DNA of 64,000 nt from Paraspadella gotoi (taxonomy: Eukaryota > Animalia > Chaetognatha). This document shows, one piece after another, positions 2,847 to 59,675 of this stretch. The notes under the pieces are model-generated. The model was not told where the DNA came from. It saw only the letters and a list, made by a program, of their open reading frames with translations, and ran no database searches. Made by a program: the position numbers and the translations under genes. The DNA lies in NCBI GenBank assembly GCA_051294375.1, contig CM119268.1, positions 3,437,856 to 3,501,855 on the forward strand, read 5' to 3'. The number at the start of each line of letters is the position of its first letter. The stretch's first letter is position 1.

Positions 2847-2880
<34 letters not shown>

Positions 2881-7956: not shown

Positions 7957-8229
7957 TATGGAACAGCCGGGTTGCCTTGACTGCGCCTATGCGGGATGGG
8001 GCATCTCACTGTTGGCTTTGGGGGCTTCGACCCTTCAAGTGACGCCTCGCAGTCAACTTGCGCGGGTTACCCTACGGACGTCCTCGCTTTGCCACGCATG
8101 AGGGAAGTTGCGGTTGGGACGTGTGGATGGAATCACTACGCCCTGGGATGGTGTCGTTTCCCCTCTGAGCGCAATAATTTGGCCTGAACGGATGGTGGAC
8201 GTTGAGGCGGTTGTGAATAAACCGCCACA
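7957..8229 (-). mobile_element. solo LTR of the twister-bearing element (mirror of 10090-10367)
   Basis: Matches the 37968-38219 LTR on the minus strand; termini TGTGGCGG...CCATA; flanked by CCAG at 7952-7955 and 8230-8233 (4-bp TSD CTGG, one extra base on one side). Confidence 0.75.
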
Positions 8230-10089: not shown

Positions 10090-10367
10090 TGTGGCGGTTT
10101 ATTTCACAAACCGCCTCAACGGTCCACCATCCGTCAGGCCAAATTATTGCGCTCAGAGGGGAGAACACACCATCCCAGGGCGTAGTGAATTTCCATCCAC
10201 ACAGTCCCTAACGCACTTCCCTCATGCGTTGGCAAAGCGAGGGACGTCCTAGGGTAACCGCGCCAGTTGACTGCGAGGCGTCACTTGAAGGGTCGAAGCC
10301 CCCAAAGCCAACAGTGAGATTGCCCCATCACCGCATAGGCGTCATCAGGCAACCCGGCTGTTCCATA
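10090..10367 (+). mobile_element. solo LTR of the twister-bearing element
   Basis: TGTGGCGGT...GGCAACCCGGCTGTTCCATA; aligns by eye end to end with 38452-38701; this copy is noisy. Confidence 0.75.
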
Positions 10368-15812: not shown

Positions 15813-15849
<37 letters not shown>

Positions 15850-16275: not shown

Positions 16276-16320
<45 letters not shown>

Positions 16321-17312: not shown

Positions 17313-17349
<37 letters not shown>

Positions 17350-18146
17350 NNNNNNNNNNNNNNNNNNNNNNNNNNNNNNNNNNNNNNNNNNNNNNNNNNN
17401 NNNNNNNNNNNNNNNNNNNNNNNNNNNNNNNNNNNNNNNNNNNNNNNNNNNNNNNNNNNNNNNNNNNNNNNNNNNNNNNNNNNNNNNNNNNNNNNNNNNN
17501 NNNNNNNNNNNNNNNNNNNNNNNNNNNNNNNNNNNNNNNNNNNNNNNNNNNNNNNNNNNNNNNNNNNNNNNNNNNNNNNNNNNNNNNNNNNNNNNNNNNN
17601 NNNNNNNNNNNNNNNNNNNNNNNNNNNNNNNNNNNNNNNNNNNNNNNNNNNNNNNNNNNNNNNNNNNNNNNNNNNNNNNNNNNNNNNNNNNNNNNNNNNN
17701 NNNNNNNNNNNNNNNNNNNNNNNNNNNNNNNNNNNNNNNNNNNNNNNNNNNNNNNNNNNNNNNNNNNNNNNNNNNNNNNNNNNNNNNNNNNNNNNNNNNN
17801 NNNNNNNNNNGAGAGAGAGAGAGAGAGAGAGAGGGAGTGAGTGAATGAAGGAAAAAGGAAAGAGATTCGACGAAAACTAAAGTTTTGGTAAGTTTATGAA
17901 AACTCACTACTTCGTAGAATACAGATTTCAATATAAATTTCGTAGTTTGTAGTTGTAGTAAGAGAATGGTGATGGATTTATAATACTCTTGGAAAAGTTA
18001 AGATCGTAAAATTGGTCGGACGTATTAAGGCTTTGATTAAAATCTTCTTCAGCGCTTCTGCTTACTTATCTCAAACGCAACTAAGTCGAAATCATATTTA
18101 TAATTGATATAACTATTTTCTTACTCCCTCCTCCATCTCTCTCCAG

Positions 18147-26234: not shown

Positions 26235-29200
26235 CTGTCAAGGGGGGGGGGAATGAACGGAGGATTCTTTTATTTGAGAATTGATTTTAATCGATGAACT
26301 TTGAATCAAATGTACGTTAAAAACTGATACAAGTTTAAACCTTATTTTTTGTAAACGTATTTCAAACCCGTGGTCTTTAATCGGCCCTTTTCAAATTTCA
26401 TACAGAGGTTCTTTCTCGCAAATGGCAACAGCCGGGTTGCCTGTGATGCCCATTGGGATGGGGCATCTTACTGTTGGCTTTGGGGGCTTCCGACCCTCAG
26501 TGACGCATCCAGTCACTGGGGCGGTTACCCTAGGACGGTCTCGCTTTGCCAAGTCGTCAGGACTGTGGATGGAACTCAACGCCTGGGATGGTGTGTTCCC
26601 CCTCTGAGCCAATGGATTTGGCTGAAGGATAGTGGACGTGAGGCGGTGTGAATATACCGCCACATAACGCAATATACCTTTCTGGAGAATTCACTACAAA
26701 TTTTGTATTGAATCTGGTTCCACTGTGCGATCAGTGACGCTATCAATCTACCGGTCCTTTTCCTGCGATGCTTCTATGTATTCTCTACCCTCTATTATCA
26801 TCCAATAATTCAGGGATATCTTATCTCAACCGGTCACCTGTCTGCGTGTCCCATCTGGCGCCTTCCATGAAGAGCCCATGGACGTAGGCGCCTCTCTCGG
26901 GGCGCGCCCATGTCTTCTTTGTTCTTCTTCGTCACATCGCAGGAGAGGCACATCTTGTCGAGTGGCCACTCGTTCTTCCGCGCCATGGACTGAGAGGAGA
27001 AATGTGTGGAAGAGAAGACATTCAATAATTTTTTTTTTAAACCGAAAATAAAAAAATTGGCGTAAAGGCTGCACACTCAAAATAAAAGAGAAATTGAAGA
27101 AACTTTGGACGACTTTTACAGTCTTCGATAACTCGTAAAATGAAAAGGGAAAAAAAAGGAAAAAAAACCCGGTTCTCGAAAACTTTTCCTTAAATTTTTA
27201 AATCGCGAATTAATTCGACGTTTAAAAATTCGGCGCCGCGAAAAACGAGCTTTTTACTTTAAATTTTAGACTATGTATTTCTTAAACAGAACTTAAATTG
27301 TTATCACTAAAACCTGTATAGTAGTATCATGCTGATGTGATAAATTTCTTGGGGGAATAATATAATATATAGTATAATACTGTATGGTACAATATAGTAT
27401 AGTGTAGTTCTTAGGAAGGTGCTCACTTTTATTGTTACTTGAACTTTTGATATTAGAAAAGTTTTCTTTGAACGAATTTTTAATGAAAAAATCAAGGACA
27501 TGTTTCAGTATTAATTTCAGAAGTTCATCAGCGTGTTCCTTAAGGTTAAGCTTAGTCGATCATACTTCGTTTATTGATAACATATTTATAACATAATATA
27601 ACATAACTGTAAGCTAACTAATACGGCCGATGCCAGCTAATCGCGATTAAAATGAATTTACTTCTACCGAAATCACTATTAACGATCATATCATATCATA
27701 TCATATCATCACTCACCTGCATAATGGCTGTGAGGAAGGACTGCGGGTTGAACAGCCCTCCCATCCAAACGCTGGCTGGCAGCGTGAAGTCCTGCGTCCA
27801 GACATCAAGCTCCCTGATACGCAGAAGCAAGTCTGCGTACCACGAGGCCAGTCCGTAGTCTGACGCGTAGGCCAGCTTGGTCCATGAGGCCGGAACGTTG
27901 TCTTGTGAGGGAAAGCAGTCATGGGAATTGGTTTGAAAGGATATGATTCATATGGTTATGATGCTATGGAAAAAATATATTTAAAGAAAGAGAAAAAGCG
28001 ACTAAAATAAAAATAATAAGATAAAAAAAAAAAAATAAGAAAAGACACAGAAAAAAAAGTTTAAAAAAATATAAAAATTAAAAGAACAAACAAAAAAGAG
28101 AGACAGAAAAAAAAAGTGTAAAAAAAAAGAAAGAAAAGAAAGACAGAAGCGCCATTCATGGGCTTAGGACAAAAACGAAGAATGAAACAAGGTGAGGAAC
28201 AAAGAGAGACTCGTGGAATAATAATAACCTGACCAGTGATCAACTGATCACACCTTACCCATGTAGAGGGCGTTGGAGAGTTCTTCCATGTCCGCCGTGA
28301 TGGTGAGTTCTCCCTTGAGTCCCAGGTCCAACTCCTTCAAGGATCTTCGCATCTCCGCCGTCAGTTGATTCATTCTCTCGCACTCTTGGAACGCGACGAC
28401 GATGTATGGTGTTCGATCTTCCACCTGATATTGGGTCGGGGTTGGGGTTGTTGGACTTATTGAGTCAGGGTTGGGATCGTTGGACTTAGTAGGACTAAGT
28501 AGTTGCGTTATCATAGTTATAATCAACATAATTATCCGAATCGCTGCGTCTCAAATCCACAGCGAAGATGTATTGTTAAGAGTTAAATAAAGAAAAAGCA
28601 TCTTAATCCAATTAGCATATTGCAGTAACGGATCTATCACTTATATTTAAGAAAAAATCCTATCACATTTCTTTCAGAAATTTTTTCCAGAATTTTTTTA
28701 TGGCGAAAATTTGGAATGCCGTTAATTTTTTGTCATGTTCAAATTGAACACCAACTTCAATCCAGCTAAAAAAAACATTCCATGCTTAAAAATACATTCC
28801 AATAACCTTGGACATGATTTCCGCCATGTTGAATTCATCCGGAAGCTTCTCGATGATGTCGTCCAGTATTGCCTTGACTTTGTCCTCCTTGGTCATGCCG
28901 ACGCCGCCGCTTCCAGCCGCGGCGTCCCGCGGCTGCATCTCCAAAACCGTGCGGAACATGTTGTCCGACGTGGCCGTCAAAAATCTGGACCGTGGGGGGG
29001 GACATAGGAAGGGAAAGACTCATATATTTATAAATGTGGATATATTCCAGACGCAATCTGTAACATTTTAATATTCTTTCATTTTTAATAATAATTAGTA
29101 GTTTTCCCATCCTTTAATTTCTCCTAGTAGCACTTTTTCATTCAATTTCTATTTCTCGCATACAATGCACCTTTTTTTTTCTCTTTCCTTTTTCTTTCCA

Positions 29201-32200
29201 TTTTCTTTTATTTTCTTTTCTTGTCTTTCACTTTCCTTTCCTCTTCCCTTCACTCACCCGATTTCCGCGTTAGGATGCAGCCCATAAAGGTAAGGCGTCT
29301 CTGGGGGCAGACAGTCGTCGATGTATTGATGATACCCCTTGTAGTCCGTGTTCGGTGGACCCGGGAAGCCGGGGGCCAAGTACAGCTCGCCCTCCAACTG
29401 TGCATATGTTCAGGTTAAGGGTAAGTGAGGCTAAATTTTTTCCAAAACGATCCGACATCGAACTTACCAATTCCGGCGACATGTACTCTCCCAAGTAGGA
29501 GCAGCACAACCTTCTGTCCCAGTCGTCGGTGATGTGACCCCCGTACATGATCTCTCCGAACAGGTAGCGGAGATCTTCCCAGGGTACCTGTTTGTGTAAA
29601 GAGAAAGATGCAGAGTTTATTTTAGTCATCGTGCTGTTACAATTATTTGGAGTCCAACACGAAAGTGAAAAACGAGAAGACGCTTTTTAATCTTCCCTTT
29701 TCTGCTCCCCTTCCCTCGTCCTTTTTTCCGTTCCACGACCCACAACCGCGACTCCCTTCCCCACGGCCCACCGACCACAACCGGCCACTCCCTTCCCCAC
29801 TGCGCCACGGTCTTTTTTTCCCCGTTTTGTTCCCCCACGCTTCCACGATTTGGTTCTGTGATCACGTCTTCCCACGATTGTATCTTCGATTATCACATAA
29901 ACTCACACGATTACGTTTTTAAAATATATTTGGACCAAAATTCAAAAACGGATAAAAATTTTTTCTAAAAATAAACAAAATACAAACAAAAGGACACATT
30001 GGAAATGTGTTCTCGCGAGGTGGAGTTCAAATCGATTCTGTTCGCGCTCTGTTATTTCCACGCCGTCGTCGCCGACGACGCAAATTCGGCGCTCAGGGTT
30101 GGAACCGTCCTTACCCGTTCAACGTGGGAGACCTCACCATAGCGTCCACGTTTTGTACAATTATTTAGAGTCGAACACGAAGTAAGGATTCCTTACTAAG
30201 AAATGACGTCGCTGCGTCAGATTGGAGTAGAAAAAAAGCTGCGTCGCTGCGTCTGGAATAATTTGTTACCATTTTAGTACACTACACTTCACTGTGGCTT
30301 ATTTTAATACACTGCACTGCGCTGATTGCACCGCACTGCACAGCGCGGCATTGCAGGCGCTGCACCGGAGTTGCTCAGCTTTTAAAGAGGACGTAAGAAT
30401 TCGCACACTCGCAATTATACGGATATTAGGTTCGTTGATAATTTTCTTTATGCAGTCACTTCTACTTAGTATTAAGTCAGCTAGAAAATAGAATTCGTTT
30501 GGATATATCGAAATAAATTTAGACTTTAATTTTTGATGAAATATATATGTAAATAAACCGTTCTAGAAAAAAAAAAGAAAAACTTTAGAGAAATTGCACA
30601 ATAGAAAACTCTGACCGCAGAATTAATTTACGTAGTTTTTAAAAAAAATTACACTATATATTATTTAGAAAATAAGAGTTAAGTCATATCAATATTTTTA
30701 GAAAAAAAATTTTTAAAAACTCANNNNNNNNNNNNNNNNNNNNNNNNNACAATATAGTATAGTGTAGTTCTTAGGAAGGTGCTCACTTTTATTGTTACTT
30801 GAACTTTTGATATTAGAAAAGTTTTCTTTGAACGAATTTTTAATGAAAAAATCAAGGACATGTTTCAGTATTAATTTCAGAAGTTCATCAGCGTGTTCCT
30901 TAAGGTTAAGCTTAGTCGATCATACTTCGTTTATTGATAACATATTTATAACATAATATAACATAACTGNNNNNNNNNNNNNNNNNNNNNNNNNTACACT
31001 ACGAGAGTTATAACGCTGATTAGGGGAGGCGAAGTACTCTGAGGGTGTACAGGGAAGAAATAGAAGAGAGATTTTGCGTATTGATACCCGGAGAGCTCGG
31101 AGAGGCAGGAGAGCCTGACGTTTAGTAGCTATGCTTTGAGTGTAGATAGGGCTCGTGCATGACGCTAAGATATTTTAGGCGCTTGTGATGAAGGATGACG
31201 AATGTCAGCTCAGAATGCACTAAGGGTGTACGCTTTCGCCTCAATGCCTAACCTCCACAGGCCTTGTGCCACAATTTCCCTTCACATTTCCTACTCCTCA
31301 ATCTCAATCCTAAGCCCAGCCTCAGTAGCCAATATGCCAGGTAAACCTGTATCCCTAAGCATCCTGCTTGTGCCTGTTTCCAACTTGAACCCTTATTCAT
31401 TGCTCCATGTCCTGTCAGCAAGCTTGCCTACCTAAATAAAATTAACATTAGGATCAACCTATTGAGGCACAGATAAGCTAACAGCAAAACTACTATTTGG
31501 CAGGTTGCATGGATAATGATTGCATTTTGCAATTGGACACAGCTCAGAAAGGGAAGGAAGCTGGGTTAGAGTTAGGGAAGGTACAGGAGGAAGGAAATAA
31601 GGATAAGGTTGCTATGATGGCATGAGTGTGGTAAGGGAGAGGCTTGCATGACAGATATATGTTAGCTTGAGGCTCAGAGTGTTACGTTAGGGTGAGTTAG
31701 GTTCAATATCCAAGCGAGGGAAACTGATGAAGAATAAGGGTGCTAGGGCCGTTTAGGTTAGGGTAATGAGAGCTGCTAGTGCATAAGGCCAAGTCCCTTT
31801 AATCTAATTCGCTACTTTTCTTTTTGGCATCATCGTAAACTTTTAAAAGTCAATACTTGTTTAGAAGATTATAGATTTAAAATCCTAGTACAGTTCTATT
31901 GTTAACAGATAGTAAAGTGTTATTAAAATTAGTGGATGTAGTGAGTCAGGGCAATTTGGGCTTAAAAAATTATGAATTTTAACTTAAAGCCTTGCATAAT
32001 ATTTTTATAACATTTTTATAACAAACAAAAATGTAATATATAGTTATTGGTTAACTTATTTGATAATTAAGTATGCTGGCTGAGAACAGCTTATTTTTTC
32101 AAAACCTGAATATTTAAAACGGAAGTGTCGATCGCAAAACGGGCGAAAATCCAAATGAGCATCCAGGAAAAGTTTTTATGTGATATTCGTTTTCTCCACT

Positions 32201-35200
32201 AATTGCACAAGAAACTGTTGCAGTATCAAACTTTCATAAATGTATGGAATTTCTGACGATGCGTGAACAGTGAGAAAACCACTCATGCTAGGCTTTCGCG
32301 TTGTGCCAAATCAACGTTCTACAAACACTTGATATTGTGGATAAGCATAATTTTGGTAGTAGTGAAGAGTATTGAAGATAAAAAGTAAAAGATATAATTA
32401 CATTTAGTTATTATTACATTGGTATTAATTTTTTTAACATTTTGCGTAAAATAAGTGTCTAATGTCTAATCGATCACCCAATGTATATGGAAGTCCAAAG
32501 TCAGGGCAAGATAGCTTATTATAAATTAATGGATATTTTATATTGGTTGTACATTTTCAATAAATAATAAATTATTTTTTGAAATTTGAATTGATGTGAA
32601 AGAAGAAAGGACAAAGCTTCCAATACTCATGCCATTGCAGAAAACTAAGATAATTAATAATTGTTAGATTATCAGAAAATAAAAATATAACAAAATATAA
32701 GCTAAGAGAATAGATTGTTACTTTTTACTGCATAAAATCAATTTTATAAATATAGAACAAAAACACTTATATCTTGAAAACTTACTATATAACGAATTTT
32801 TCAAATTACAAAACAAAACTAGGAGAATAAGCTACGGTGTTTTACTACACACATGGTGAAAATCTTATGTTATACATATTACACTTCTTTTAAAAATATA
32901 TCATTTTCGCCCAATTTTTTGGCATCAACTAGTTTCACTACTCAGTGTTATTAGCCAAAAATATTGGTCAAACCTGCATTTAAGTAATTGTAAGACAAGA
33001 AATAAGGGAAACGAACCGAGTGAGAACATAGTATGGGTTGTTTAGACTGGGAACTCTAACATATTAGTATAAATGTGGATATAGATCAACGCAATCTTAA
33101 CATTTTAATATTCTTTCATTTAATAATATTAGTAGTTTTCCCATCCTTTAATTTCTCCTACACTTTTTCATTCATTTATTTTTATTATTTTTAATTCACC
33201 TTTCTTTCTCTTTCCATTTTCTTTCCATTTTCTTTTTTCTTTATTTCCTTTCTTCCCTTTCCTTCCTCTCCTTCACTCACCCGATTCCGCGTTAGGAGCA
33301 GCCATAAAAGTAAGGCGTCTCTGGGCAGACAGTCGTCGATGTATGATGATACCCTTGTAGTCCGTGTTCGTGGACCCGGGAAGCCGGGGGCCAAGTACAG
33401 CTCGCCCTCCAACTGTGCATATGTTCATTCAAGGGTAAGTAAGCTAAAATTTTTTTCCAAAACGTCCGACATCGAACTTACCAATTCGGGCGACATGTAC
33501 TCTCCAAGTAGGAGCAGCACAACCTCCTGTCCAGTCGTCAGTGATGTGACTCCCGTACATGATCTCTCCGAACAGGTAGCGGAGATCTCCCAGGGTACCT
33601 GTTGTGTAAAGAGAAAGATGCAGAGTTTATTTTTCTAAAAAATATTGATAGAGCTAACTTTCTGGTTTATTTTTTTTTAAATATTGATATGAACTTAACT
33701 CTTATTTTCTTAAATATATATAGTGTAATTTTTTTTAAAAAACTACGTAAATTAATTCTGCGGTCAGCAGTTTTCTATTGTGCAATTTCTCTAAAGTTTT
33801 TCTTTTTTTTTTTTCTAGAACGGTTTATTTACATATATATTTCATCAAAAATTAAAGTCTAAATTTATTTCGATATATCCAAACGAATTCTATTTTCTAG
33901 CTGACTTAATACTAAGTAGAAGTGACTGCATAAAGAAAAGTTATCAACGAACCTAATATCCGTATAATTGCGAGTGTGCGAATTCTTACGTCCTCTTTAA
34001 AAGCTGAGCAACTCCGGTGCAGCGCCGTGCAATGCCGCGCTGTGCAGTGCGGTGCAATCAGCGCAGTGCAGTGTATTAAAATAAGCACAGTGAAGTGTAG
34101 TGTACTAAAATGGTAACAATTATTCCAGACGCAGCGACGCAGCTTTTTTTCTACTCCAATCTGACGCAGCGACGTCATTTCTTAGTAAGGAATCCTTACC
34201 TTCGTGTTCGACTCTAAATAATTGTACAAAACGTTGACGCTTATGGTGAGGTCTCCCACGTTGAACGGGTAAGGACGGTTCCAACCCTGAGCGCCGAATT
34301 TGCGTCGCTCGGCGACGACGGCGTGGAAATAACAGAGCGCGAACAGAATCGATTTGAACTCCACCTCGCGAGAACACATTTCCAATGTGTCCTTTTGTTT
34401 GTATTTGTTTTATTTTTAGAAAACAATTTTTATCCGTTTTTTGAATTTTTGTCCAAATCATTTTAAAACGTAATCGTGTGAGTTTATGTGATAATCGAAG
34501 ATACAATCGTGGGAAGACGTGATCACAGAACCAAATCGTGGAAGCGTGGGGGAACAAAACGGGGAAAAAAGTCATCGTGCTGTACAATTATTTGGAGTCC
34601 AACCACAAAAGGTTTGAAAATCGAGATGAGACGCTGTCTTTAATCTTCCCTTTTCTGCTACCCTTTCCGCTCGTCCTTTTTCCGTATCCGGTCGTTTCCA
34701 CCGACGCACAACCCGGCACTACTCCCTTCCCTCACGGCCACCGACCACAACCGGCCACTCCTTTCCCCACTGCCGCCACGGTCNNNNNNNNNNNNNNNNN
34801 NNNNNNNNNNNNNNNNNNNNNNNNNNNNNNNNNNNNNNNNNNNNNNNNNNNNNNNNNNNNNNNNNNNNNNNNNNNNNNNNNNNNNNNNNNNNNNNNNNNN
34901 NNNNNNNNNNNNNNNNNNNNNNNNNNNNNNNNNNNNNNNNNNNNNNNNNNNNNNNNNNNNNNNNNNNNNNNNNNNNNNNNNNNNNNNNNNNNNNNNNNNN
35001 NNNNNNNNNNNNNNNNNNNNNNNNNNNNNNNNNNNNNNNNNNNNNNNNNNNNNNNNNNNNNNNNNNNNNNNNNNNNNNNNNNNNNNNNNNNNNNNNNNNN
35101 NNNNNNNNNNNNNNNNNNNNNNNNNNNNNNNNNNNNNNNNNNNNNNNNNNNNNNNNNNNNNNNNNNNNNNNNNNNNNNNNNNNNNNNNNNNNNNNNNNNN

Positions 35201-38200
35201 NNNNNNNNNNNNNNNNNNNNNNNNNNNNNNNNNNNNNNNNNNNNNNNNNNNNNNNNNNNNNNNNNNNNNNNNNNNNNNNNNNNNNNNNNNNNNNNNNNNN
35301 NNNNNNNNNNNNNNNNNNNNNNNNNNNNNNNNNNNGTTCCGCAGACATAAACACTCTGGATAATAGGGTGAAGTAATCAATTCAAATAAGCAAATCAATA
35401 TATATTAATAAATTATTTTATTTATAAATTTAACCAATAAATCAACCCATAATTAACCAATTATTTAACGTATTAAATAAACTGTTAAGCAGATAACCAA
35501 CCTATTATTTAATCAATTGACCTATTAATTAACCTATTTAATAAATAAATCGACGAACCTGTAATCCGCGTGAGCGTTGAGCGAGTTATACTCGATCTTC
35601 TTTTCCAGATTCGGCAGCCAACTTTTGACGAGATGAATGTTCTGGAGGATCACCCAGTGGCCTTGCGTCCCCGCTAAGTCAAGGGCCGCCTCCGCCACCA
35701 CCTCTTGCCCTTGGCCCAAGGAGATGTTGTGGAAATTGTTGTTCTGGAAGCTGTTATAGGGGGGGTTAAAATATTGTAGAAATGTTATTTCGAAAAGTAA
35801 ATTTTTGTTCCAAAACCGGCAAATAAAGATCGAAATAGAGGTGATCACCTGTATCCCATCTTTTTGCCGAGAATCTCCACGTCTTTCAAAGGATCGACGC
35901 CTAAAAAAAAGCAAAGAAGACTTAATAAAAACCGAAAATACAAGCAAATACAAGCGCAACATCAAGCTTTGCAAATAAGCGACGCTACTAAAATCAAAGA
36001 AGATTGCCTGGAGAGAGAATGAAGAAGATGGGCGCCCCAGGTCCGGCCTCCTCAAAGGATTTGGCGAATTCCATTTGCCGGACGTTGACGAATTTCGCAC
36101 CGAGCTTCTCCTCCACGAAGTTGCTGCGAGAAAATAATAAAAAACAAAACGTTAAAACGAAACAGAAAAACGAATCATAGTGAAAACAACACAAAACTGT
36201 AATTAAGTATCAGTATCTCTCTCAGATTCATTATTTGTTTTGTTTTGTTTTGTTTTCCCTTCAAACCTAATTTGCATAATAATCTTAATTTTTGTTAAAA
36301 ACGAATTTAAATTTTATTTTTCTTGATGATCATGTGATTACACAATGGATCAAAGGCATGAAAGGAGACTCAAGGAAAATCGCCTGTCCACCAATTATTT
36401 TTATACTAAAAGGGTAATTTAAGGGCANNNNNNNNNNNNNNNNNNNNNNNNNNNNNNNNNNNNNNNNNNNNNNNNNNNNNNNNNNNNNNNNNNNNNNNNN
36501 NNNNNNNNNNNNNNNNNNNNNNNNNNNNNNNNNNNNNNNNNNNNNNNNNNNNNNNNNNNNNNNNNNNNNNNNNNNNNNNNNNNNNNNNNNNNNNNNNNNN
36601 NNNNNNNNNNNNNNNNNNNNNNNNNNNNNNNNNNNNNNNNNNNNNNNNNNNNNNNNNNNNNNNNNNNNNNNNNNNNNNNNNNNNNNNNNNNNNNNNNNNN
36701 NNNNNNNNNNNNNNNNNNNNNNNNNNNNNNNNNNNNNNNNNNNNNNNNNNNNNNNNNNNNNNNNNNNNNNNNNNNNNNNNNNNNNNNNNNNNNNNNNNNN
36801 NNNNNNNNNNNNNNNNNNNNNNNNNNNNNNNNNNNNNNNNNNNNNNNNNNNNNNNNNNNNNNNNNNNNNNNNNNNNNNNNNNNNNNNNNNNNNNNNNNNN
36901 NNNNNNNNNNNNNNNNNNNNNNNNNNNNNNNNNNNNNNNNNNNNNNNNNNNNNNNNNNNNNNNNNNNNNNNNNNNNNNNNNNNNNNNNNNNNNNNNNNNN
37001 NNNNNNNNNNNNNNNNNNNNNNNNNNNNNNNNNNNNNNNNNNNNNNNNNNNNNNNNNNNNNNNNNNNNNNNNNNNNNNNNNNNNNNNNNNNNNNNNNNNN
37101 NNNNNNNNNNNNNNNNNNNNNNNNNNNNNNNNNNNNNNNNNNNNNNNNNNTTCCGGAATTCCTCCATCTGGGACAAGGCCTTGATTCCTGAGGGCGAAAC
37201 GGGGGTAGACATGACTTGACATGACATGACGCAATACGGTGCGACATGAGTTAATATTTATTACATGCTGTTTAGTAGGAAAAGAAAATAATGTCAGAGG
37301 AAGAGAAAAGATATAAAAAATGAATCAATAAACTATCAAATGAATCAATGAATGAATTGATTATCAATGAATCTACGAACAAAAGAATAAATAAAAAATA
37401 TATAATCAAACAAGCATGGCATTAATCAATATTTCAAAAAGGTAGTAAAGGATACCTAAAACGTCGAAATGCTCATCAAATATTACGAATATCCTTACTT
37501 CCCAGAGAGCGTTCTTTCCCGCAGCGCCACCCCATTCCTCACCTCCCCAGCAGGTGTGGTTCAAAAAGTCCACGGGTGACATGACGTTGGGGACGATTGG
37601 GAACCGGAGCAGAAAGTCCAGCTCCGTCGCGTTGAGTTCTGTGTTGCGCATCAGGATTTGAAAGGTCATCTGAGAGGTGAAGATGAGCTTGTCCTTTTCG
37701 AAGAGACCTTTGGGGGAGAAATGAGGAAATGAGGAAATGAATATCAAAAAACAAACAAACAACTAAGGGAAACCAATAACAAATTAACAACGAAAACGAC
37801 CATAACCAATACTTAGTTTTTAAACTTTACAATTTCATCGAACAACGACGTCCTCCGGAAAATTTCTCTCATTTCTCCCCAAAGTCATTTTCTCATTTCC
37901 TCATTTTTTATTTTCTCCCCCAAAGGTCATTTCTCATTTCCTCATTTCTCCCGCTTAAGGGTCAATTTGTGGCGGTATATTCACACCGCCTCACGTTCGT
38001 CATCCTTCAGCCAAATCCATTGGCTCAGAGGGGGAACACACCAACCCAAGCGTAGTGTTCCATTCCACAGTCCTAACGACTTCCCTCTGCGTTGGCAAAG
38101 CGAGACCGTCCTCGGTAAACCGCGCAGTGACTGAGCGCGTCACTGAGGGTAGGAAGCCCCAAAGCCACAGTGAGATGCCCCATCCCAATGGGCATCACAG

Positions 38201-41200
38201 GCAACCCGCTGTTGCCATATAGTGGTGAGCCCTACTATCGAACACGCAACCTTCTCAGGGTACGCTACGACAAACGCCTATGCCTGCCGACTTCGGGTAC
38301 GCTACGACAAACGCCTATGCCCTGGTGTACGCTACGACAAACGCCTATGCCCAACAACTCGCGCTCTCTCTCTCTTCTCCCACTATGGTAACAGTCTTGT
38401 CAGACAATCTCAGGCTTGAGGAACCTGAGTGATGTCTTGGCCCGGGGATCCTGTGCGGTATATTCACACCGCCTCACGTTCGTTCATCCTTCAGCCAAAT
38501 CCATTGGCTAGAGGGGGAACACACCAACCCAAGCGTAGTGTTCCATCCACAGTCCTAACGACTTCCCTCTGCGTTGGCAAGCGAGACCGTCCTAGGGTAA
38601 CCGCTGCCAGTGACTGGAGGCGTCACTGAGCGTCGGAAGCCCCCAGGCCAACAGTGAGATGCCCATCCAAGGGGCATCACAGCAACCGGGCTGTTGCCAT
38701 AAGTTCATAATTTCCTTATTTCTTCCCAACGGGATTTCCTCTTTTCCTCATTTTTTCATTTCTTCCCCAAAGGTCATTTTCTCATTTCTTCATTTTTCAT
38801 TTCCTTCCCAAAGGTTATTTTTCGCATTTCCTCATTTTTTCATTTTTTCCCCAAAGGTTGTTTTCTCTAATTTCCTCTTTTTTTCATTTCTTCCCCAAAG
38901 GTCATTTTCTCATTTCCTCATTTCTCCCAAAAGGTCATTTCCTCATTCTCCCCCAAAGGTCATTTCCTCTTCTTCTCCCCAAAGGTCATTTCCTCATTTC
39001 CTCATTTCTCCCCCAAAGTTCATTCCTCATTTTCTCATTTCAGTGCACCCAAAGAGGGTNNNNNNNNNNNNNNNNNNNNNNNNNAAAACAACCTTTGGGG
39101 AAAAAATGAAAAAATGAGGAAATGCGAAAATAACCTTTGGGGAAGAAATGAAAAAATGAGGAAATGAGAAAATGACCTTTGGGGAAGAAATGAAAAAAAT
39201 GAGGAAAAGAGGAAATTCCCTTTGGGGAAGAAATGAGGAAATTATGAAATGACCTTAAGGGGAGAAATGAGGAAATGAGAAAATGACCTTTGGGGGAGAA
39301 ATGAAAAAATGAGGAAATGAGAAAATGACCTTTGGGGGAGAAATGAGGAAATTTTCCGGAGGACGTCGTTGTTCATGAAATTGTAAGTAAAAACTAAGTA
39401 TTGTTATGGTCGTTTTCGTTGTTAATTTGTTATTGTTTCCCTTGTTGTTTGTTTTGTTTTTTTTGATATTTCCTCGGACTGACCTCTGGTGGTGTAGATG
39501 AATACAGAATAAGTGATGCAGTCGATGAGATTAATGACTCGACCTTTAACGTCTTCGGCCGGTTCTGCGCGATCAATCGCTTTGTCGAACACCGCGCCAA
39601 AGGCCTGCAAGGAGTAGGAAATAGGACAATCAATGGCAGAAAATGAAATGGGTGATGGATATACAGCGAGTGATGGAACTATTACTGTAAATGAGAAAGA
39701 GAGTTAGAGAAGACGTCGTTTCGTGGCACATTTTTATCTAAAGGCGAGTTTTTCGTTTTTTTTAACGTAAGTGGGACAGACGATAGACAGACCGACCAAA
39801 AAGTGACCGATGAGGAGGAGGGGCTTCGCCTCCTGCATCTTCTTCCTCCCCATACCTCGTCCTCTTCCTCACGGGGCTCGTTGATTTTCACGATTTCACT
39901 TTTTCACCTTTCTCCAGTTGTTCTTACATTTTGCTGATTACTGGACGCCTCTCTCTCAATAAACGCTTTACCTTTTATTTCCCGTCTATATTATTTCACG
40001 AGGATACTTATTCCAAGGGTGACTTATAAAGTTGCTCCACGAGGACTGAAAAATCCAAATTCGTGGCTCGTTTACCGTTACACTGGCGAGATCGACTAAA
40101 ATATCGTCGTCATTTTGGGACATAAACGACAGACCGTTTTGAACTCTTAATAAGTTCAGGTCACTTGTAAAAGATTAATCTTTTTGCTGATCAAATCCCC
40201 TGATCTCTTTTTTTCTATTTTCCCCTTTTTGTTCGCATTTATTGTTAACATAAGAACTTTTGCAACCATTCCCGTAATTATTTGTTTGCTCTGTTTTCTT
40301 TAAGAATTTTTTTTTTTTTTTAATTGAAAATGTGCATAAAATATCTATTTTTCTCTGTTTATTAAAATTTTTTTTAAGCATAGACAAAATTAACAAAATG
40401 ATATCGTTGATTATTTTTCCTAAAACAGTTTTCAAGATTCTTCCAACATAAAACTGTAAAATTTTAAACAATATTCTACATTTTCTAGGTAAGGGTGGCG
40501 TTCGTGACAATTATTTCTTTCTTTTCACATCCTGCATTCTGTGAAAAAAAACAGTCAACTTAAAAAAAAGGAAAATCGCAGCGAAATGGAGCTGGAGCTC
40601 CTTTCAGCGCTTTTTCAAGCAACGACCTTAATCCTCATCGTAGCCTCGTACTTTTACATCAAATTCCTTCGATTCAACCAGAAATTTGACGACAAAGTCC
40701 GAATAATCGGTGAAGGACGCGGAGGCCGCTCGTGGAGGCCCTTGGAAGCGCTCGAGGCCAACTTCGAACTGCGGCAAGGATTTGGCGTTTCCATTTTCTC
40801 AGTCGCTTTTTTCGTCGAGAGTCTCGAGCCTTTGGAGGAAGAAGCTTTGAAGACGGCGTTGAGTCGAATCGCGGCGGCGAATCCGATGCTGCGGATGCGA
40901 ATCGACGGAGATGTTGACGGCGATGTGCTGTATTTTGAGGAGATGGAGGAGTTTCGCCCTGACGTAGAGGTGTTGGAGACGGCGGACTGGCAAAGCCTGA
41001 TGGAGGACGAGATTGGGAAACCTTTTCACTCTTCCGTGGGTCCGCTGTGGAGAGTCAAGTTGCTCAAAGGCGACGTCGAAGGCGAAACGCATCGTCGAGT
41101 CTTAATCATGACTTTTCATCACGCGATCGTGGATGGGAAATCCGCCATGGGGATCGGCGATCGACTCATGGACGAATTAAGTGGGGAGAACGTCGCCAAA

Positions 41201-44200
41201 TGGAAAACAGATTACGAAGGAAAGATGCCGCCGTCTTACGTAGAATTTCTCGGAGAAAAGATCGACCTTTCCCGATGGGAAAAACTTGGGCTCTATTTGC
41301 GATCGAAATTAGGAGGTCAGTTTGACATCATACCGAAAACGAGGCCTTGCTCTTTTGTCGAATTGGTGGCGCTTAATGATGAGAAATCAAAGAAGCCGAT
41401 TCGTTTTCGATCCAAATTCTTTACAATCGAATTAAACGCCGAAGATCTTGACGNNNNNNNNNNNNNNNNNNNNNNNNNACGAGCTGCCCCTCCGCCGCTG
41501 TGCCTTCCACGGCTGCAAATTGCATGGAGCCTTGCAGGCCGGTTCGTAGTCTCGCCCAGGTCGAAATGGTCAACCGAAACAAATTCAAAGGCTCGCAACT
41601 TCCAGACTTTTCTTAGCATCAATAATTATTATACGCGGAAATCGACGCGCGGTTTGCTGATGAGACTTTGCACTATTGGTCAGTCGTGGGATTTCACGCT
41701 TTGGTCGCACAATGACGAAGAATGTCCATTCGAATCCCGAAAAGTTGAAGCAAAATTTTGGACCTCGCTAAAACATAAGCGACGAAGTTCACGCGAGACG
41801 ACGGGAAAATCCAGTTGGAATCTTTCTTTAAAATCGGAGAGTGCCTTTACAGATTCTTACCAAAAGTTTGGCGAAAGGGCATAGATCGGTTGACTCCGAA
41901 AAACTTTCGACCTGAAGAAATTTATATCGATTTCTTCGTGAGCAACTGGGGCAAGTTTTTCGAAGGACGAGTTGATTCCCGAGTTTTCGAAGTAGTCGCC
42001 GCCTCGTTCCTGCCGCCAACATATCTTGCAGCGGATTTTGCTTCTCACATTCCGTGTCTCAGTCCGGGGAAAACTTTTCTGGACAATTAACTTTTGCGAA
42101 GGCATATTTCCGATGAAGAAGGGCGATTTATGTGATTGCGCTCAAAAGAGGCTTTGAGTAAAGTGGTTAGCGGGGAAATTGGCGGTGAAATCTTTGTCCT
42201 TTTTTGGGAGCGGAACCGAAATTTTCATTTTGGAGAAAATAAAAACAATGTTTAAGTAAAATACGTTAATAAATAAGCTGCCATTTATTGAAAAGTTGTA
42301 TTTTTATCATCGTAAATTTAATTGTCAAAAAATATCAACAAGCAATTTCATTTTTCACTGTTACCTCAGTAAATAACGACATAATCTCATGTTAACAAGA
42401 ATTTATTAAGTACTGTATTAATACAATCTCATTTTTATTAAGCATCTCTTAGCGAGAACTGATAGTCGAATTAATGACATAATTCCAGCTTAGCAAGAAC
42501 TGATAGACGAATTTTATGACATAATCTCACCTTTAGCGAGAACTGATAGATGGGGTTGATGATGTTGAGGTCGTTGATGATGAAGTACAATAGCGAAGCC
42601 CTGGAGGCGGCGAGACGGTAGTGCTCTCTCGCTTCGGATCTGAACCTCCGTGGACTTGGTCTCGGCCACTTTCACCAAGAGGGATGAGTGGAAACTGTGA
42701 AAATATACTTACGCATCTCTCTTTTTAGCTGTTAATGATTGTAAATTTATTATTTAATATTTGATTTTAAAAAATTTTCTAGTATTTTCATTCAATCTAT
42801 CCTTCAATTCTATTCGAAGTGAAACATTTTTTTCTCTTCCAAATTGTCTTTTTTTTGGTTCCAATGATTCAATTTAACATTTCACCTCGATTTCCGACTG
42901 TCGTCTCTAGATTTTCCACCAGCGCCGTGTCTTCCTAAAAAGTTGCCAGAGGCCGCTGAAGGCTCGAAAGCAGCGAGTCCTGCGAAAGAAAAAACAAAAG
43001 GCATCAGTGAAGAAATCAAAACTCGTTTGCAAGAGTAAAATTTTCCTAACCTCCAATGATTCAGCGTAATCTTGAATTCGTTCTGTTGCCTCGTCAAGTC
43101 TTTCTTCAACTTTTCCAAATCGGGCCGCTCCTTCGCCACGACCTGAAGGAAATTGGCGAAAAGTTTTCACTGTAAACAATTACAAAGCAGCTCACGTGAA
43201 AAAGGCCTTACCTCAGCTAACAGTTGATCTTCTAACCCGTCCCGAGTTACAGTGAAGTTAATCAAAGTAGTTTGAGCCTGAAAAACAGTGAACGTCAGGA
43301 AAATAAAAGCAAAGAATTGACGCCTGTTTAAGGGCAAAATCTTTGATAATATTCGTCCCTACCTGCATTTCTGGTTGTAGTGAGATTAGCAATCGTGTGA
43401 AGAATAAGTCTAAAGGTGGAGCAGTACTCAACCTAAAAAACAAGGAAGAAGAAGCATTGTTAAGATTATACCCAAACTAACATTAACAAATATTTCATAT
43501 TTCAACATCAATGTCCCCACCTCTTTGTCGCCCATCTTGATGGCCTTGCCCTTATTGATTGGTTGTCCTTCCGAGCAGCGGCTCAGCACTGGGTCCACGG
43601 ACTCCCCGATGTTTTCGAGAGGCAGGACCTACCCCTATGAGTCACCGCACGCTCGATCCGGGTCCATGTAGCCTTTCTGGCCCAGTCGGATGACGACCTT
43701 TTTTTTGAGGGAGAATCAAATAAAAAAAAAAACAAAAAATCAAAAAATCATTAATTAATTTAAGAATCAAAGTAAAAATAAAGCACCTATGATCCTTTGG
43801 CTTCAAACTATCAACTTGCTTTGAGAATGATCATTCAATCAATCAAAGCAGAATTACAAGGACTATAAGCATAGACAATTAAAAAAATCGACAAAAAAAA
43901 GCGCCAGTAATTTCAAAACCCCCTCAACTCGCATAAAAACCCAATAATAAAAAAAAAAAAAACAATAATAAACGCCCAACCAGTGACATCTGGCAACCAA
44001 TCAATCAACCAATCAGAACGAACCAAAGCGTCGCTCGTATTTGTTCTTGATCCATTTGACTCCTTGCAACTGGGATCGATCATGAGTCCCCCATCTCTCG
44101 CAGTTGCTGAGAATCGTTCGCGTTTTCGATGGACATTCGGTGACGGAAGACCTGGACATCGATGCGATGTGGAAGGGGGGGACGTTGTTTTGAGGGTGTG

Positions 44201-45230
44201 GAGGGACCGGGGAGTTTTGACAGTGCGTGTGCGGGTCGTTTAATTGAGTTTAGAAGCGGTACTTACGTCGCACGGTCAATTTCATACAATTTCTTTCAAT
44301 TTATTTCATGTTCCAGTATGTGTTTAAATTTTTTGAAAAAAAATTTTCTGTTGCTAAGATTAATTATTCAGATCATATCAATATTGATATAATTAATCAA
44401 GAAATTAATATTCGTATTGATCAAACGCCGTCGCGCGAATTATAAATCAACTGTTGCTGGTCCATTTCCCTGAGCCACTGTGTACCTCGTTGTTCCACGA
44501 CGCGATGTCAGCGTCGTCCGTTAGCATCGTCAATGGATCCAGATTTTCAGTCATCGGTATGGGAACCTGAAGCCAGATTACATATCAACAACGAAATAAA
44601 TGCAACTATTATATATTAACAGTTTCATTATGCACGGTTTTCCCAATAAATGACAAAACTGTCAAGATTCGGGATTCAGGATGGTATAATATATCCCAAC
44701 TGACGATTTTTCGAATAAATCTTTTGAGTTATTTATATAGTTGCATGTCTAAAGCTGCCAATGCCTTGCAAGGTAATCTCGCTGTAAAAGCTTCCCTGTC
44801 GAGCAAATGTCTTAGCTTCCATATATACACCGTTCTCGTTTTACAATTTTAAGTTTCTCGCAATTTTAATTTATATAAGAGAAAAAAAAAATTTTGATTT
44901 CGAAAGACAAATGCCAAAAATCTCTACAATATGTAAATGGCGTTATGAAAATTTCATTAGTTGGTCGCTCTTTCTCAGGAAGTTTCGTCATCGACATTTT
45001 AAGCCGGACAATCACTTTGCTTACTTAAAAAATAATTTTGTCAGGCCAATTTTGTTCTTTACATTAATTGTATTAATATTATATTAAATTCTGCTTACTT
45101 CCAGCTTCATGTAAACGGGAGCCACATTTTGCTACATGAGGTCTTGACGATACGATTTCGTGAAGCAGCCCATGTAGGATACAAAGCCGTGATTAGAAGA
45201 ATATCTCCTGGGAAGTTTCGTTTCCTTGAT

Positions 45231-45271
<41 letters not shown>

Positions 45272-45356
45272 GAGAGAGAGATATAATATATATATTATGA
45301 TTTTATAACAATAACAATATTAATACAACGCAACCGGGTACCACAAAAAAAATGAC

Positions 45357-45423
<67 letters not shown>

Positions 45424-48400
45424 CTCTCTCTCCTCACCTGCTTCTTCAAATCTTGCACGCTCTCGGCCCATCTGACGTTCTCGGACGCCAGCCCCCCGAC
45501 AAGTCGGTTCGCCAACTGGATGGTTCGTTGCGTGTTGTCGGCCTCCTCCTGGCAACGGATCTTCTCTGCCGTCGCCTTCTCGAAGTCGGCCGTCAGCTTG
45601 GCCAGGACGTCTTCGAGGTCGCAGATCTTGGCCTTTTTAAAAAAGGGGTGGAGGGTATTTAGTATTTTGAGACAACAGAGCGAACAGTTTAGCCATAAAA
45701 AGAAGGGAATACAGCGGAATGTTCATCAGTAGTCGAAACTTACAAGACTGAATGTTAAAAGACACCGGAATTTTCATACTTTGATCCCTCAGATATATAT
45801 AGTCACAAATTTCACATTCAACGGCTGAAGAATCGATTTGAAGTTAATAACATCAAAGGACAAAATCAATTCGCGCTATGACTGCCGCCACATGGACTTC
45901 TGTTTCTCATACTAATCGATCGCTAGGTGATTTCGTAAATTCGTTACAAAAAAAAATATGAAAAAATAAAAAAAAACGGAAATTCGGTAAAAAAACTGAA
46001 ATATGTAAATGATATTTACGCGTCAATCCAGCTACGACACGGTCCTTACTTGGATCATGGCGAGCTTCTCCTGCCGCGGCTGCCAGCTCGCGTTGGCCGC
46101 CTGCCAGAGCCAGCCGCTTCGGCTCGACGTCGCAGTAAACTTCGTAAAACTTTATTATGTTGATAACCTGAATAATTAAATTATTATAATTTATTAAAAA
46201 ACCTCATATTTAATCTACGAAACAAAAACAAACCCAGAATATCGGAAAATCGCCGTATGAATATTAAATTGCACAACTAATCCTACATCGCATTTGATTA
46301 ATCAGAAACTTATTTAAACTGAACATGTACGAAAGAAATCAGCCTCGTAAAACCCGATCTCTCACTCGCGGGGCCAGTTGGCTTCACCAAGAACACATGC
46401 CGGCGGCGGGCGGTGGACTTGGCTTTGATGAACTCTGCGATCAAATTCTGGTCGTCCAAGTACGGCCGAATCGCCTTCAAACAATTCTCGTGGACATTTC
46501 TCTTTGTCGTAGTTGATTAGGGCATCTAGGAAGGCGTCCACTTTACCATCATTCCTAGAACCGAAAAGGGGGGGGGAGATTTTCACGTTTTTAAAAGTAT
46601 ATAAGTGAATGATTAATTTCTGGAAGAAACAATTTAAAATTATAATTATTTGTTCGTTCACTACTTTATTGATATAAAAACAGTAAATCTTTCATTCATT
46701 ACTTCCGTCATTTTTAGTTTCTGCATTCGCTCCTTAATTAATTCTTTCATTATCATTCACCAATTCATTTATCATTCATTGACTCTTCAGTTTATTTTAA
46801 TTCCTAATTGATTCCTCGTTTCATTCATTAATAATAATTCACATTCTCCCCTTCTTTCTCCCTCGTCCACCTTTGGCGGCTTTCCAACTTCTGCTCCTTC
46901 GGAAATTTGCCACCAGGGGCAGCAACACCATCACTCCGCCAGTGACGTTTGACGACGGGCGGTCGGGGGAGAGCCGAATGACTTTAGCTCCGTCAGGTTG
47001 TTCTCGGAATTAATGAACAAAACGACATCATGAGGACTGAAATAAAATAGAAAAAAAAAAAGGACCAAGGGCTTGAGAATTGATGAATGACAAAAGGACA
47101 AAACGGGAAGAAAATGTTTATTGACAAAAGAAGAGATTGAAAAAGAATAAAATATCTAAAAAATAAATGGTATAATAAAATTAGCTAAATATTCGAAAAA
47201 AAATTTAAAATTACCATTAGACTCAAATTGACAAATGTCATATGAAATAGGATAAAATATGGCGAAATGACAAAAACTTATCAACGTCAAGCAGTTTTGC
47301 CCCGTCTGTGTCTAAGCTTTAAATTTCTCTTTCCAATCCCTCCCATTCATCCATTCCGCCCCCAACCCCTTCCAGCCCCAAACCCCCCCCACACCTTGTT
47401 GAGCGTGTCGAGGGCTTGGTTGGCCGCGATGAGCGCCGGTTCCGCTTTGGCCCAATCCTGTTCGCAGTCTTTCTGCTTTTTGGCCACCTCCTCGGCGATC
47501 AGTTGCACTTTTGTTCTTCCTGTTGTCAGGGGTAGGGATGATTATAACTGTTGTGGTGACGAGAGAATTAATAATTTGTTGCGATGTTTGTAAAGAGACA
47601 TTAGTTTTCGAACAATCAAGAAAATCAATAAAAAAAAACACCAGAAAAAAAAAACAAAAACAAAAACAACAAACAAATAAAAAAAAACAAATATCATACG
47701 AGAAAATAAAAAAAAACGAGCAAAGAAAAAAAACAAATGAAAAATCTAAAAACAAACAAACAAACAAAAATATTAAAAAGAAGTGATGGAAAGTTAAAGA
47801 AAGTCCACCTGATCGGCAACTCTTTTCTCTTTGGAGACTTTTTCGTTTCTTGGCCCACAATCTGAATTAGAGCATCGGCTTGTTCGTTTTTCGCTTTCAG
47901 TTCAATTTCCTGTAAAGGAAATTAAAACGCGTTTTCGTTACTGGGGCGTTTAAAGAATCAAAACAGCCTACTAAAATTCATTTAATATAAACAAAGGATT
48001 AGGTAGGTCCTTCTCTCATCTCACCCTAAAGTACAATAGGATTCCCACCCTCGTAAACTCACCTGCACGGCCAATTTCTCCTTGAGGTCGGTCGACCTGC
48101 ACAGCAGTCGTGCGAAGTTTTTCCAACCCATTCTCTAAGCGCATAACTTTTCCGTTCAGTTCCGCCGTGTTTCTTATCCAGCAGATTTTGGTAAAGTTTT
48201 ATCTGAACGAGTATTTGTTAAATACATTATATTAAACTATCCGTTCATTCCATAACTAAGCCAATCTTGCTAAGTAAGGGCCTCCATCCCTTAACTAAAA
48301 AATGACACTGCTCAACATTGCCCAAAAAAAAATGGTTTTTAATAAATTACGAAATTTTTACTTGTTCTAAAAATGATTTCGGCGTAGTGTAGTTGTAACG

Positions 48401-54258: not shown

Positions 54259-54351
<93 letters not shown>

Positions 54352-58217: not shown

Positions 58218-59675
58218 CTGCGGGGGGGGAGCGGGCGGGGCGGGGCAATTTCAAATATTGCTCAATGTAATCATTTATTATTTTTTCTCTCTCTCTCTCT
58301 CTCTTCTTTTCAATGCTTTTTCAAGACTTAGAATCGACAGTCTGTGTTTTTGTACCGAATCAACCATTTTGCATTAGAAAAAAAAACCCGCTTAAATAAT
58401 AAGGGTTATCGAATAGTTAAAGTCGTGGGTGGTTGCATCGAAAACTAACATATGTCAGGATTGAAATATTTGATTCGTTAAATTTACATTACATTTTAAA
58501 GCTAGACGACTTTACTCCGATCGTGGAAGCCAACTCCAAAGTCTAATCTGTTATGTTATTATCTTGCAAGTGTGATGGAGGCCTTAAACCACCAAAGCCT
58601 GTCCAAAGTCAGGGACAAAATAGCTTATTTATTAAATGTATGGATAATTTTTATATTGGTTGTACCAATTTCATAATAGAATCCTTAATTTAGATCAAGA
58701 GTCGAGCGAATGGAGGCTTTGTAATCAATTATCATCGTGATTGTAGAAAACGTACTTCAATTTTCTATGCCTTTTCGGTCATACGTCCAATTTAGTACAA
58801 CGTTAGTTTTTTGGAAGATTATTATTTTATAATTATTCGCATTATTAAAAAAACCCGTAGAAATTTAAATTTAAAGGGCAGAAGCTATTATGATTTCGAT
58901 CATGAAAGAAAATGTATCTAAAAGTGAGAATAAGGAAAATATTGACCTCAGCCGCTTCAATCACTCTGAATGATCACTGGTCAGTCATTTAATTGGGACC
59001 GAGAGAAAGAGAGAGAGCGAGTCGTGATATTTTCACAGTCATCCTCGATTTCAAAGCCGAAGGATAAACCGGAACGAGTTCGAGCAAACTCGATCTGAGT
59101 CCATCGTCTATTCTATTCATTATCTCTTCGATTCAAACCCTCGCAATCCAGTTCGCGTACATCCCACGGAATATCGGACACTTAATTCTCCTCCATTTTC
59201 CTTCTTAAATCGATGTACGGGGCAGCGAGAAGAGAACGAGGTCCGAGCATCAAAACAAACCATCTCTTTCTAGTGTTTAACCCGTTTTTGTTTTTAACCT
59301 TTTTGTGTTTCGTTTCTGGATCTTTTTTTTTTTCACTTTCTCTTTCTCTCGTAGGATATTTTAATCCGTCGGTAACAACAATTTTAAACAATTAAATTCG
59401 CCGCGGTTATTGATAAACCCTAAGGACGATCTTCGTCGATCATGGCCGATAACATTTCGAGTTGAATCGTTTTTAAACATCGAAACGATTTCACGGTCGT
59501 TCAACATGCACGTGTGATAGCAAGAGATAAATGCTAAATAAGCAGGTAATTAATGATCGAATTTTTATGTCTTATCAAAAACTTTTTAGTTATTATGTAT
59601 GCATTTAAATGGCTATTTTAGGGTTTTAATCAATAATGACACGAAACCTATTTTTAAATAAGATTTTAATTTCCA

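Follow-up and report, generated by a model that had tools for sequence, protein, structure and literature searches.

Introduction

Hammerhead retrozymes are known from plants as long terminal repeat (LTR) elements and from animals as non-LTR elements, and animal ribozyme repeats were described as having neither a primer-binding site (PBS) nor a polypurine tract by Cervera, Urbina and de la Pena in 2016 (PMC4918200). For the plant elements a model has been put forward in which the RNA is ligated to a circle, primed by a tRNA and reverse transcribed round the circle (PMC4918200). As far as the available text of the sources goes, retroelement twister ribozymes have been reported only for non-LTR RTE/Perere elements (PMC7761336, PMC8501958), and twisters also occur in viroid-like circles. 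Here, we analyze a 734-bp element in a 64,000-nt stretch of DNA from the chaetognath Paraspadella gotoi (GCA_051294375.1, CM119268.1), which as a whole is called the window in the following. The element lies in an intron of a dynein heavy chain gene. Judging from its sequence, there is about an even chance that it is a non-coding mini LTR retrotransposon with ends and PBS of the CsRn1 type, in which a twister-like motif of P5 order would cut once per LTR to give a 482-nt circle that helper enzymes would copy.

Results

A short LTR element and its solo copies

Our evidence base is five copies of a ~250-bp repeat, located within the window by BLASTN and nhmmer. They lie at three loci and comprise one paired-LTR element and solo LTRs. 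The element is non-coding, shorter than 1 kb, and consists of two direct LTRs of ~250 bp around a 232-bp core, just as an earlier account of this DNA, the sequence-only reading, had described it. The three further solo copies that it had listed, two of them as mirror images of one locus, were also recovered (copies C, D and E); D and E represent one solo locus in a mirrored 2-kb block (7145-9101 versus 9264-11177).

37968..38219, forward strand: 5' LTR, copy A, TGT...ATA (BLASTN/nhmmer)
38220..38451, forward strand: non-coding core, 232 bp
38223..38234, forward strand: primer-binding site of tRNA-Trp type, TGGTGAGCCC TA, beginning 3 nt after LTR A
38258..38351, forward strand: three 27-nt internal repeats
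38377..38394, forward strand: inverted copy of the LTR end and PBS start, predicted to pair with 38209-38229
38444..38448, forward strand: weak polypurine-tract candidate GGGGA, 3 nt upstream of the 3' LTR
38452..38701, forward strand: 3' LTR, copy B (BLASTN/nhmmer)
26421..26664, reverse strand: solo LTR C, within the final dynein intron and in sense orientation, with the best fit to a twister at 26474-26552
10090..10367, forward strand: solo LTR D, mirror of E, with many indels
7957..8229, reverse strand: solo LTR E, with CTGG on each side and one additional A on the right

The LTR starts with TGT in five of five copies and ends with ATA in four, copy C ending with ATT. Canonical TG...CA ends were rejected, as the empty site described below and the CsRn1 signature agree with ...ATA instead. 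The PBS-like TGG that the sequence-only reading had seen at the core start is found at the fourth base of the core. TGGTGAGCCCTA stands three bases past the end of LTR A, and the PBS 10-mer is found once in the window. Right after the PBS, at 38238-38243, follows TCGAAC, which we take to resemble the complement of a tRNA T-loop, so that the primer match may once have been longer. Pairing of 38209-38229 with 38377-38394, as predicted, would mask the primer site at the RNA level. Four overlapping open reading frames (ORFs) of 37817-38416 matched no Pfam family. A tRNA-derived LTR of the Helenus type was rejected, with no tRNA found here by ARAGORN and no match for three element-specific motifs in the supplement of PMC10886601.

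The window assembly is noisy: it contains 3,274 N, many mirrored blocks and one 8.5-kb direct duplicate. Over 258 columns, LTRs A and B are set apart by 14 one-base indels and nine substitutions (one of them a transition); 13 indel events over 225 columns distinguish the left flank of the element from its mirror, and 18 over 285 columns copy D from copy E. Because all three comparisons are laden with indels, most differences between copies look like sequencing error. As A and B differ mostly by one-base indels, in the same way as the flank and its mirror do, the two LTRs may in fact be near identical and the insertion young.

In such an assembly, with its many mirrored and duplicated blocks and N gaps, the paired repeats might be an artefact, or a Penelope-type partial tandem instead of LTRs. 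We find this hardly credible, since both ends are common to three independent loci, a clade-specific PBS stands at the core start, and what is missing from the mirror arm is exactly this unit and 4 bp. The ends, the PBS and the empty site thus support the non-autonomous LTR element of the sequence-only reading, which is almost certainly real and can be narrowed to a CsRn1-type signature.

Insertion site and likely helper clade

Copies A and B with their core sit in antisense orientation between dynein exons 39625-39473 and 37720-37556. Matches to exons of this gene come from a wide spread of animal groups. The entire intron (37721-39472) is an inverted repeat with arms of short modular repeats, Foldback-like in appearance. 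Its left arm carries the element, whereas the right arm lacks it and provides an empty site.

37964..37967, forward strand: putative target-site duplication (TSD), left copy AATT (filled site equals empty site plus 734 bp plus 4 bp)
38702..38705, forward strand: putative TSD, right copy AGTT
39247..39250, reverse strand: empty site ATTT in the mirror arm 39085-39470
26014-58216, reverse strand: axonemal outer-arm dynein heavy chain gene (DNAH9/11/17-like) with many short exons

The filled site reads GGTC-AATT-[734 bp]-AGTT-CATAA and the empty site GGTC-ATTT-CATAA, so that the gain is the element and exactly 4 bp. The 4-mers AATT, AGTT and ATTT differ at one position; their length fits, but their letters are not a clean duplication. 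This difference is tolerable given that the mirror arms are 91% and 93% identical to the two element flanks. Of the fixed termini, TSDs and paired LTRs that the sequence-only reading would expect, the window copies show the ends and the LTR pair, while the TSD is of 4 bp by length with letters that are not identical. We disfavour the mirror arm as a second haplotype, as both arms lie between two consecutive, unduplicated dynein exons. At copy D, the duplication is partial. Near copy C, TTGCG occurs at 26417-26421 and 26668-26672, but 3 nt off the 5' end, possibly by aberrant integration or error.

Elements of the CsRn1 clade of Ty3/gypsy have ends TGT...ATA or AAA, a tRNA-Trp PBS and a 4-bp TSD (PMC2582038). 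All of these are found here, the TSD by length alone, and TGGTGAGCCC TA agrees with the CsRn1-clade PBS at 11 of 12 positions (PMC2582038). Because of the TGT...ATA ends, the Trp-type PBS and an empty site sharing exactly 4 bp, we name this clade as the likely source of the helper.

A twister-like motif in the LTR

The order of motif parts that the sequence-only reading had quoted as a consensus is visible in the alignments of the copies. Copy B illustrates the layout.

38573..38652, forward strand: twister-like motif, copy B
38573-78/38647-52, forward strand: P5
38581-84/38601-04, forward strand: P2
38585-86, forward strand: GA
38587-89/38634-36, forward strand: T1
38590-97, forward strand: palindromic P1 linker
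38598-600, forward strand: UAA, predicted cut 38598/38599
38606-07, forward strand: T2 GC, following one additional T
38608-14/38622-28, forward strand: P3
38633-40, forward strand: loop 4
38091..38168, forward strand: twister-like motif of P5 order, copy A, with four deviations; cut predicted near 38116/38117; damaged in the P1 linker, in T1 and at the closing base of P3

With TAA starting at 38116 and 38598, the predicted unit between the cuts is 38117-38598, i.e., the 482 nt proposed earlier. The conserved letters of L1 and L4 in P5 order (UAA, GA, GC, GG-U-NNN-AAGC-CC) are present at 15 of 16 positions in copy C and likewise at 15 of 16 in copy A. Across the three loci, each twister core element is intact in at least two copies. 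T1 reads CCG/CGG in B and C, retains two of three pairs in A, and is broken in D and E. P4 consists of three G-C pairs and an A-C mismatch.

Our generic twister descriptor comprises 16 fixed letters, T1, P2 and the outer P4 pair. Copy C fits it with three deviations plus a 7-bp P3 and a 5-bp P5, and copy A with four deviations. In shuffles of copy C, 37 of 76,402 reached three deviations or fewer, and none reached four or fewer with both stems of at least 5 bp. Component rates were obtained from a further 103,489 shuffles (53/103,489; 1/7,307; 198/7,307), and their product is ~2e-9 per 244 nt if independence is assumed.

Phage twisters (37 distinct loci) served as controls and provided natural precedents for the odd pairs. 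A search that fixed a swapped C-G first T1 pair, and left the remaining two T1 pairs free, gave 10 phage loci, several of them related, in all of which T1 was fully paired; all 10 match Rfam twister-P1 at E<=0.021, below the gathering score. A C-A at the first P2 pair occurs in one phage twister (L060), and the P2 strand GCGA in one twister-like phage locus (L080), which was not run against Rfam. In a scan for the third P2 pair (67 loci, 14 distinct sequences), full pairing was confined to L080. A mismatch at the outer P4 pair is present in five of the 37 phage twisters, and P3 is closed by C-G in 12 of 14 examples from phages, as it is in copies B and C. Taken together, the sequence pattern supports a P5-order twister core with T1, T2, P3, P4 and P5 in order, from which we infer the fold. 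Very probably the LTR motif descends from a twister, and we think it rather likely that it still cuts.

Two further observations concern other loci. One viral contig (L026:99-946) contains three P5-type twisters, each with a P3 stem, at a spacing of 360-420 nt. A twister-P1 match in L047 has, at a distance of 20 nt, a match to RF01322 that resembles a CRISPR repeat (192-228, 35 bits, less than the gathering score).

A palindromic P1

The sequence-only reading had taken TCCTAGGG as the P1 hairpin, which does not hold: as a hairpin it has an energy of +2.7 kcal/mol, as a duplex -11.0 kcal/mol, and it would form only as the latter. The P1 linker is instead an 8-nt palindrome that is intact in copies B, C and D. 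In the phage P5 twisters, by comparison, P1 is a hairpin of 14-27 nt with -7.6 to -16.9 kcal/mol in 18 of 18 distinct sequences. The prokaryote genomes, a collection with no positive control, yielded no P5-order twister whose P1 linker was at most 12 nt long. In Penelope elements and in the retrozymes of the axolotl, hammerheads with short palindromic stems are described to be active in dimeric form (PMC7229834, PMC6765202). A palindromic P1 of 8 nt does not fold into a stable hairpin, and we therefore propose by analogy that both LTRs of a single transcript likely join in a swapped dimer. A lone copy would then be slow to cut, which would explain that the solo LTR C persists in sense orientation in a dynein intron.

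Several points count against this proposal and the twister itself. P1 is not closed as a stable hairpin, and a palindrome arises in 11% of the permutations of these eight letters. Moreover, P1 can be deleted without loss in the env22 twister (PMC5408937), so a dimer may be unnecessary, and copy C carries a T2 change as well.

Evidence against a twister and against retrozyme replication

A considerable body of results weighs against reading the element as a twister retrozyme. The sequence-only reading had itself held that a missing covariance match of the consensus would speak against a type-P5 twister, and for single copies this is what we found: Rfam yielded no twister match on the window, on the element (37900-38800) or on copy B, neither at the gathering threshold nor at E<=10, although it did recover the twister at 20 of 20 phage loci tested. 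On the window, no family at all reached the gathering threshold, and other matches were weak and unrelated (E 2.5-8.6 on 37900-38800, E 5.2 on copy B). Hammerhead families gave no Rfam match on the window or on 37900-38800 either. We also built a covariance model of the twister 3' half from 13 phage sequences. With this, copy C scored 12.7 bits (E=0.11, not significant, top of five window matches) and copy B 6.6 bits, while eight held-out twisters scored 31-38 bits and chance loci selected by motif reached up to 18.3.

The descriptors are open to similar objections. A strict version found none of the five copies, and of the 37 phage loci it recovers 20, the rest being mostly of P1 order. A tolerant version found two of five (B, D and E, with indels, were missed), and it also yields a chance site at 3684-3752 without P3 or P5; moreover, its tolerance was set after the sequence was seen. 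The LTR is hairpin-rich (z -2.98), which shuffles under-represent.

As to structure, the P2 of twisters is made of four Watson-Crick pairs (PMC5408937), whereas P2 here has three pairs and a C-A in all copies. P4 carries an A-C mismatch as well and no copy is intact, which bears out caveats already raised by the sequence-only reading. The P2 strand CCGC turned up in no true twister; its single phage match was judged a chance one. With pseudoknots uncounted, copy C in its nested twister fold is 15 kcal/mol less stable than in its minimum-energy fold; in the competing fold the T1 loop is paired with the P2 strand. Homologues were found neither in viral contigs nor in prokaryote genomes. A metagenome search gave 12 matches, which we regard as chance because none has BLAST similarity to the element or an Rfam match.

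Because of the missing Rfam match, the weak model score, the P2 mismatch, the competing fold and the tolerance set post hoc, the motif is a twister-like variant of P5 order that we do not file under Rfam Twister-P5. What stands of the type-P5 assignment is the P5-order fold by descriptor against shuffles, together with the precedents for its odd pairs; the class assignment by Rfam does not.

The same Rfam, model and descriptor results could indicate that the twister resemblance arose by chance in a GC-rich, hairpin-rich LTR, and the ~250,000 windows scanned offer many chances for this. However, the rate of ~2e-9 for copy C alone corresponds to ~5e-7 per window and ~0.1 over ~250,000 windows, and three segments keep the twister order, the 4-nt P2 register and a C-G closed P3. 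Chance is thus very improbable.

A different explanation is that of an ordinary terminal-repeat retrotransposon in miniature (TRIM) that uses the normal R-repeat route. The twister would then be a real but decayed passenger from another retroelement, for instance a Penelope-like or RTE-type one, and no longer cut. The A-C mismatches in P2 and P4 that are common to the copies, the nearly lost P1, the missing covariance-model match and the competing fold would all agree with this. In addition, TRIMs are known to acquire small-RNA sequences in their LTRs (Helenus, Ajax; PMC10886601), and an inactive sense copy in a dynein intron would be harmless. On the other hand, T1, T2, P3, P5 and the core letters are kept over three loci, every one of them undamaged in two copies or more, nature offers precedents for the odd pairs, and the shortened P1 is exactly self-complementary. 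We consider this passenger rather unlikely.

Further evidence against the retrozyme concerns the replication cycle. Before the 3' LTR, the polypurine tract is weak, with only GGGGA at 38444-38448. Copy C has no adjacent TSD. No autonomous helper element with shared ends was seen on the basis of the window ORFs; of the 155 ORFs in the window, 147 were scanned, and none encoded a reverse transcriptase or integrase. The 482-nt unit is 58% paired (z -0.8 as a circle, -1.0 in linear form) and not rod-like, which also suits a decayed passenger, while plant retrozyme RNA is ~70% self-paired (PMC4918200). Assembly errors may lower the figure for the 482-nt unit.

Other features of the window

Large mirrored blocks with 81-97% identity and many indels lie at 1400-17850 and 29814-34570 and are typical of fold-back chimeras or noisy long-read assembly. 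A direct duplicate with frameshifts (42145-50575 versus 51081-59468, 95.7% identical) is probably an assembly duplicate. At 60230-62730 we found a long repeat with an 18-nt period and open frames of 500-800 codons. Antisense inside a dynein intron, an ORF with a Condensation domain (PF00668, E 2e-10) lies at 40508-41881 on the forward strand, intronless to view; among its Atlas neighbours most are bacterial, which we do not take as a sign of transfer.

Discussion

If the retrozyme reading applies, the two LTR copies of a transcript would pair via their palindromic P1 to build two swapped active sites. The transcript would be cut once per LTR, at 38116/38117 and 38598/38599, and thereby free a 482-nt unit without an R repeat, whereas a lone copy, be it a solo LTR or the circle junction, would be slow to cut. 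The freed unit would be ligated to a circular 482-nt RNA; RtcB is described to ligate ribozyme-cut ends of such a kind (PMC7229834, PMC11263348). A tRNA-Trp might then prime reverse transcription around the circle, which would restore the two LTRs with no need for an R repeat, and the DNA would be inserted by an integrase of CsRn1 type with a 4-bp duplication.

The motif might also act without any circle. In that case the ribozyme would be active as a monomer, or serve as an end-processing device that substitutes for a poly(A) signal or trims read-through, and the RNA would stay linear. In agreement with this, neither AATAAA nor ATTAAA occurs within the element, P1 is dispensable for twister cleavage (PMC5408937), and the 5' ends of the Schistosoma Perere-3 long interspersed nuclear element are processed by twister variants with no circle (PMC8501958). 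Yet cuts at the same site of both LTRs remove the R repeat that is needed for strand transfer, which is the reason why a circle was proposed for plant retrozymes (PMC4918200). Furthermore, if the monomer were fully active, copy C would sever the dynein pre-mRNA in which it lies, barring a real T2 change in this copy. Activity as a monomer or in linear processing is unlikely.

Returning to the circular retrozyme, we put forward only tentatively, as somewhat less than an even prospect, the full claim: a first LTR-type retrozyme of animals and first twister-based LTR element, in which P1 makes an obligate swapped dimer, only the two-LTR transcript cuts, solo LTRs and circle stay intact, and copying is of CsRn1 type. 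The literature searched describes neither an LTR element that carries a twister nor an animal retrozyme that has a PBS; as subscription papers were covered in part, a prior description is possible.

The biological role of twister ribozymes was called unconfirmed in a 2021 paper (PMC8501958), and an active element would give them a concrete job. The strategy to cut, circularise and reverse transcribe would then have arisen again with another ribozyme class, in another kingdom and with a helper clade that can be named. Combining a twister with RtcB circularisation has so far been an engineered tool, Tornado (PMC11263348), of which the element, if our reading is true, would be a natural counterpart. 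A twister that works only as a dimer would provide a simple switch by which full-length elements are distinguished from solo LTRs. Such a dependence would also account for motifs of this kind escaping Rfam, and more of them may hide in invertebrate LTRs.

Among known systems, the element shares TGT...ATA ends, a tRNA-Trp PBS and, putatively, a 4-bp TSD with the CsRn1 elements PwRn1 and AgCR (PMC2582038). It differs from these by its 734 bp without gag-pol and by the weak polypurine tract, and the CsRn1-clade description, in its available parts, mentions no ribozyme (PMC2582038). As in Helenus, Ajax and Cassandra TRIMs, a structured small-RNA module resides in the LTR, but there it is derived from tRNA or 5S RNA; animal Helenus elements have 4-bp TSDs and gypsy PBSs (PMC10886601).

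With type-P5 twisters (RF02684; PMC5408937), the motif has in common the order P2'-GA-T1-P1-UAA-P2-GC-P3-P4-U-T1-AAGC-P4' and its termini in P5. It deviates from them by the 8-nt palindromic P1, a P2 of three pairs and C-A, the swapped first T1 pair and the lack of a model match, and it combines P3 with a closed P5, as the Rfam P5 model (RF02684) does not. Schistosoma Perere-3/RTE elements likewise combine an animal retrotransposon with a twister of atypical P1; these are non-LTR and autonomous, and have one 5'-terminal ribozyme that relies on the target site to complete its P1 (PMC8501958, PMC7761336). Metazoan non-LTR retrozymes and Penelope hammerheads are also small ribozyme repeats in animals, with dimers of short palindromic stems and circularisation of RtcB type. 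The non-LTR retrozymes, however, form tandem arrays without LTR, PBS or polypurine tract, contain type I hammerheads and are Penelope-linked (PMC7229834, PMC6765202, bioRxiv 10.64898/2026.07.22.740005).

Plant LTR retrozymes (PMC4918200) resemble the element in their non-coding core, two LTRs each with a motif of self-cleaving type, a PBS, a 4-bp TSD (putative here), solo LTRs and dependence on Ty3/gypsy enzymes (predicted here). In contrast to them, it resides in an animal host, carries a twister-like motif instead of a type III hammerhead and a PBS for tRNA-Trp instead of tRNA-Met, and has a unit of 482 instead of 600-1000 nt; its predicted RNA is not highly self-paired. With no hammerhead and low pairing, the element falls outside the plant retrozymes, yet it likely works like one.

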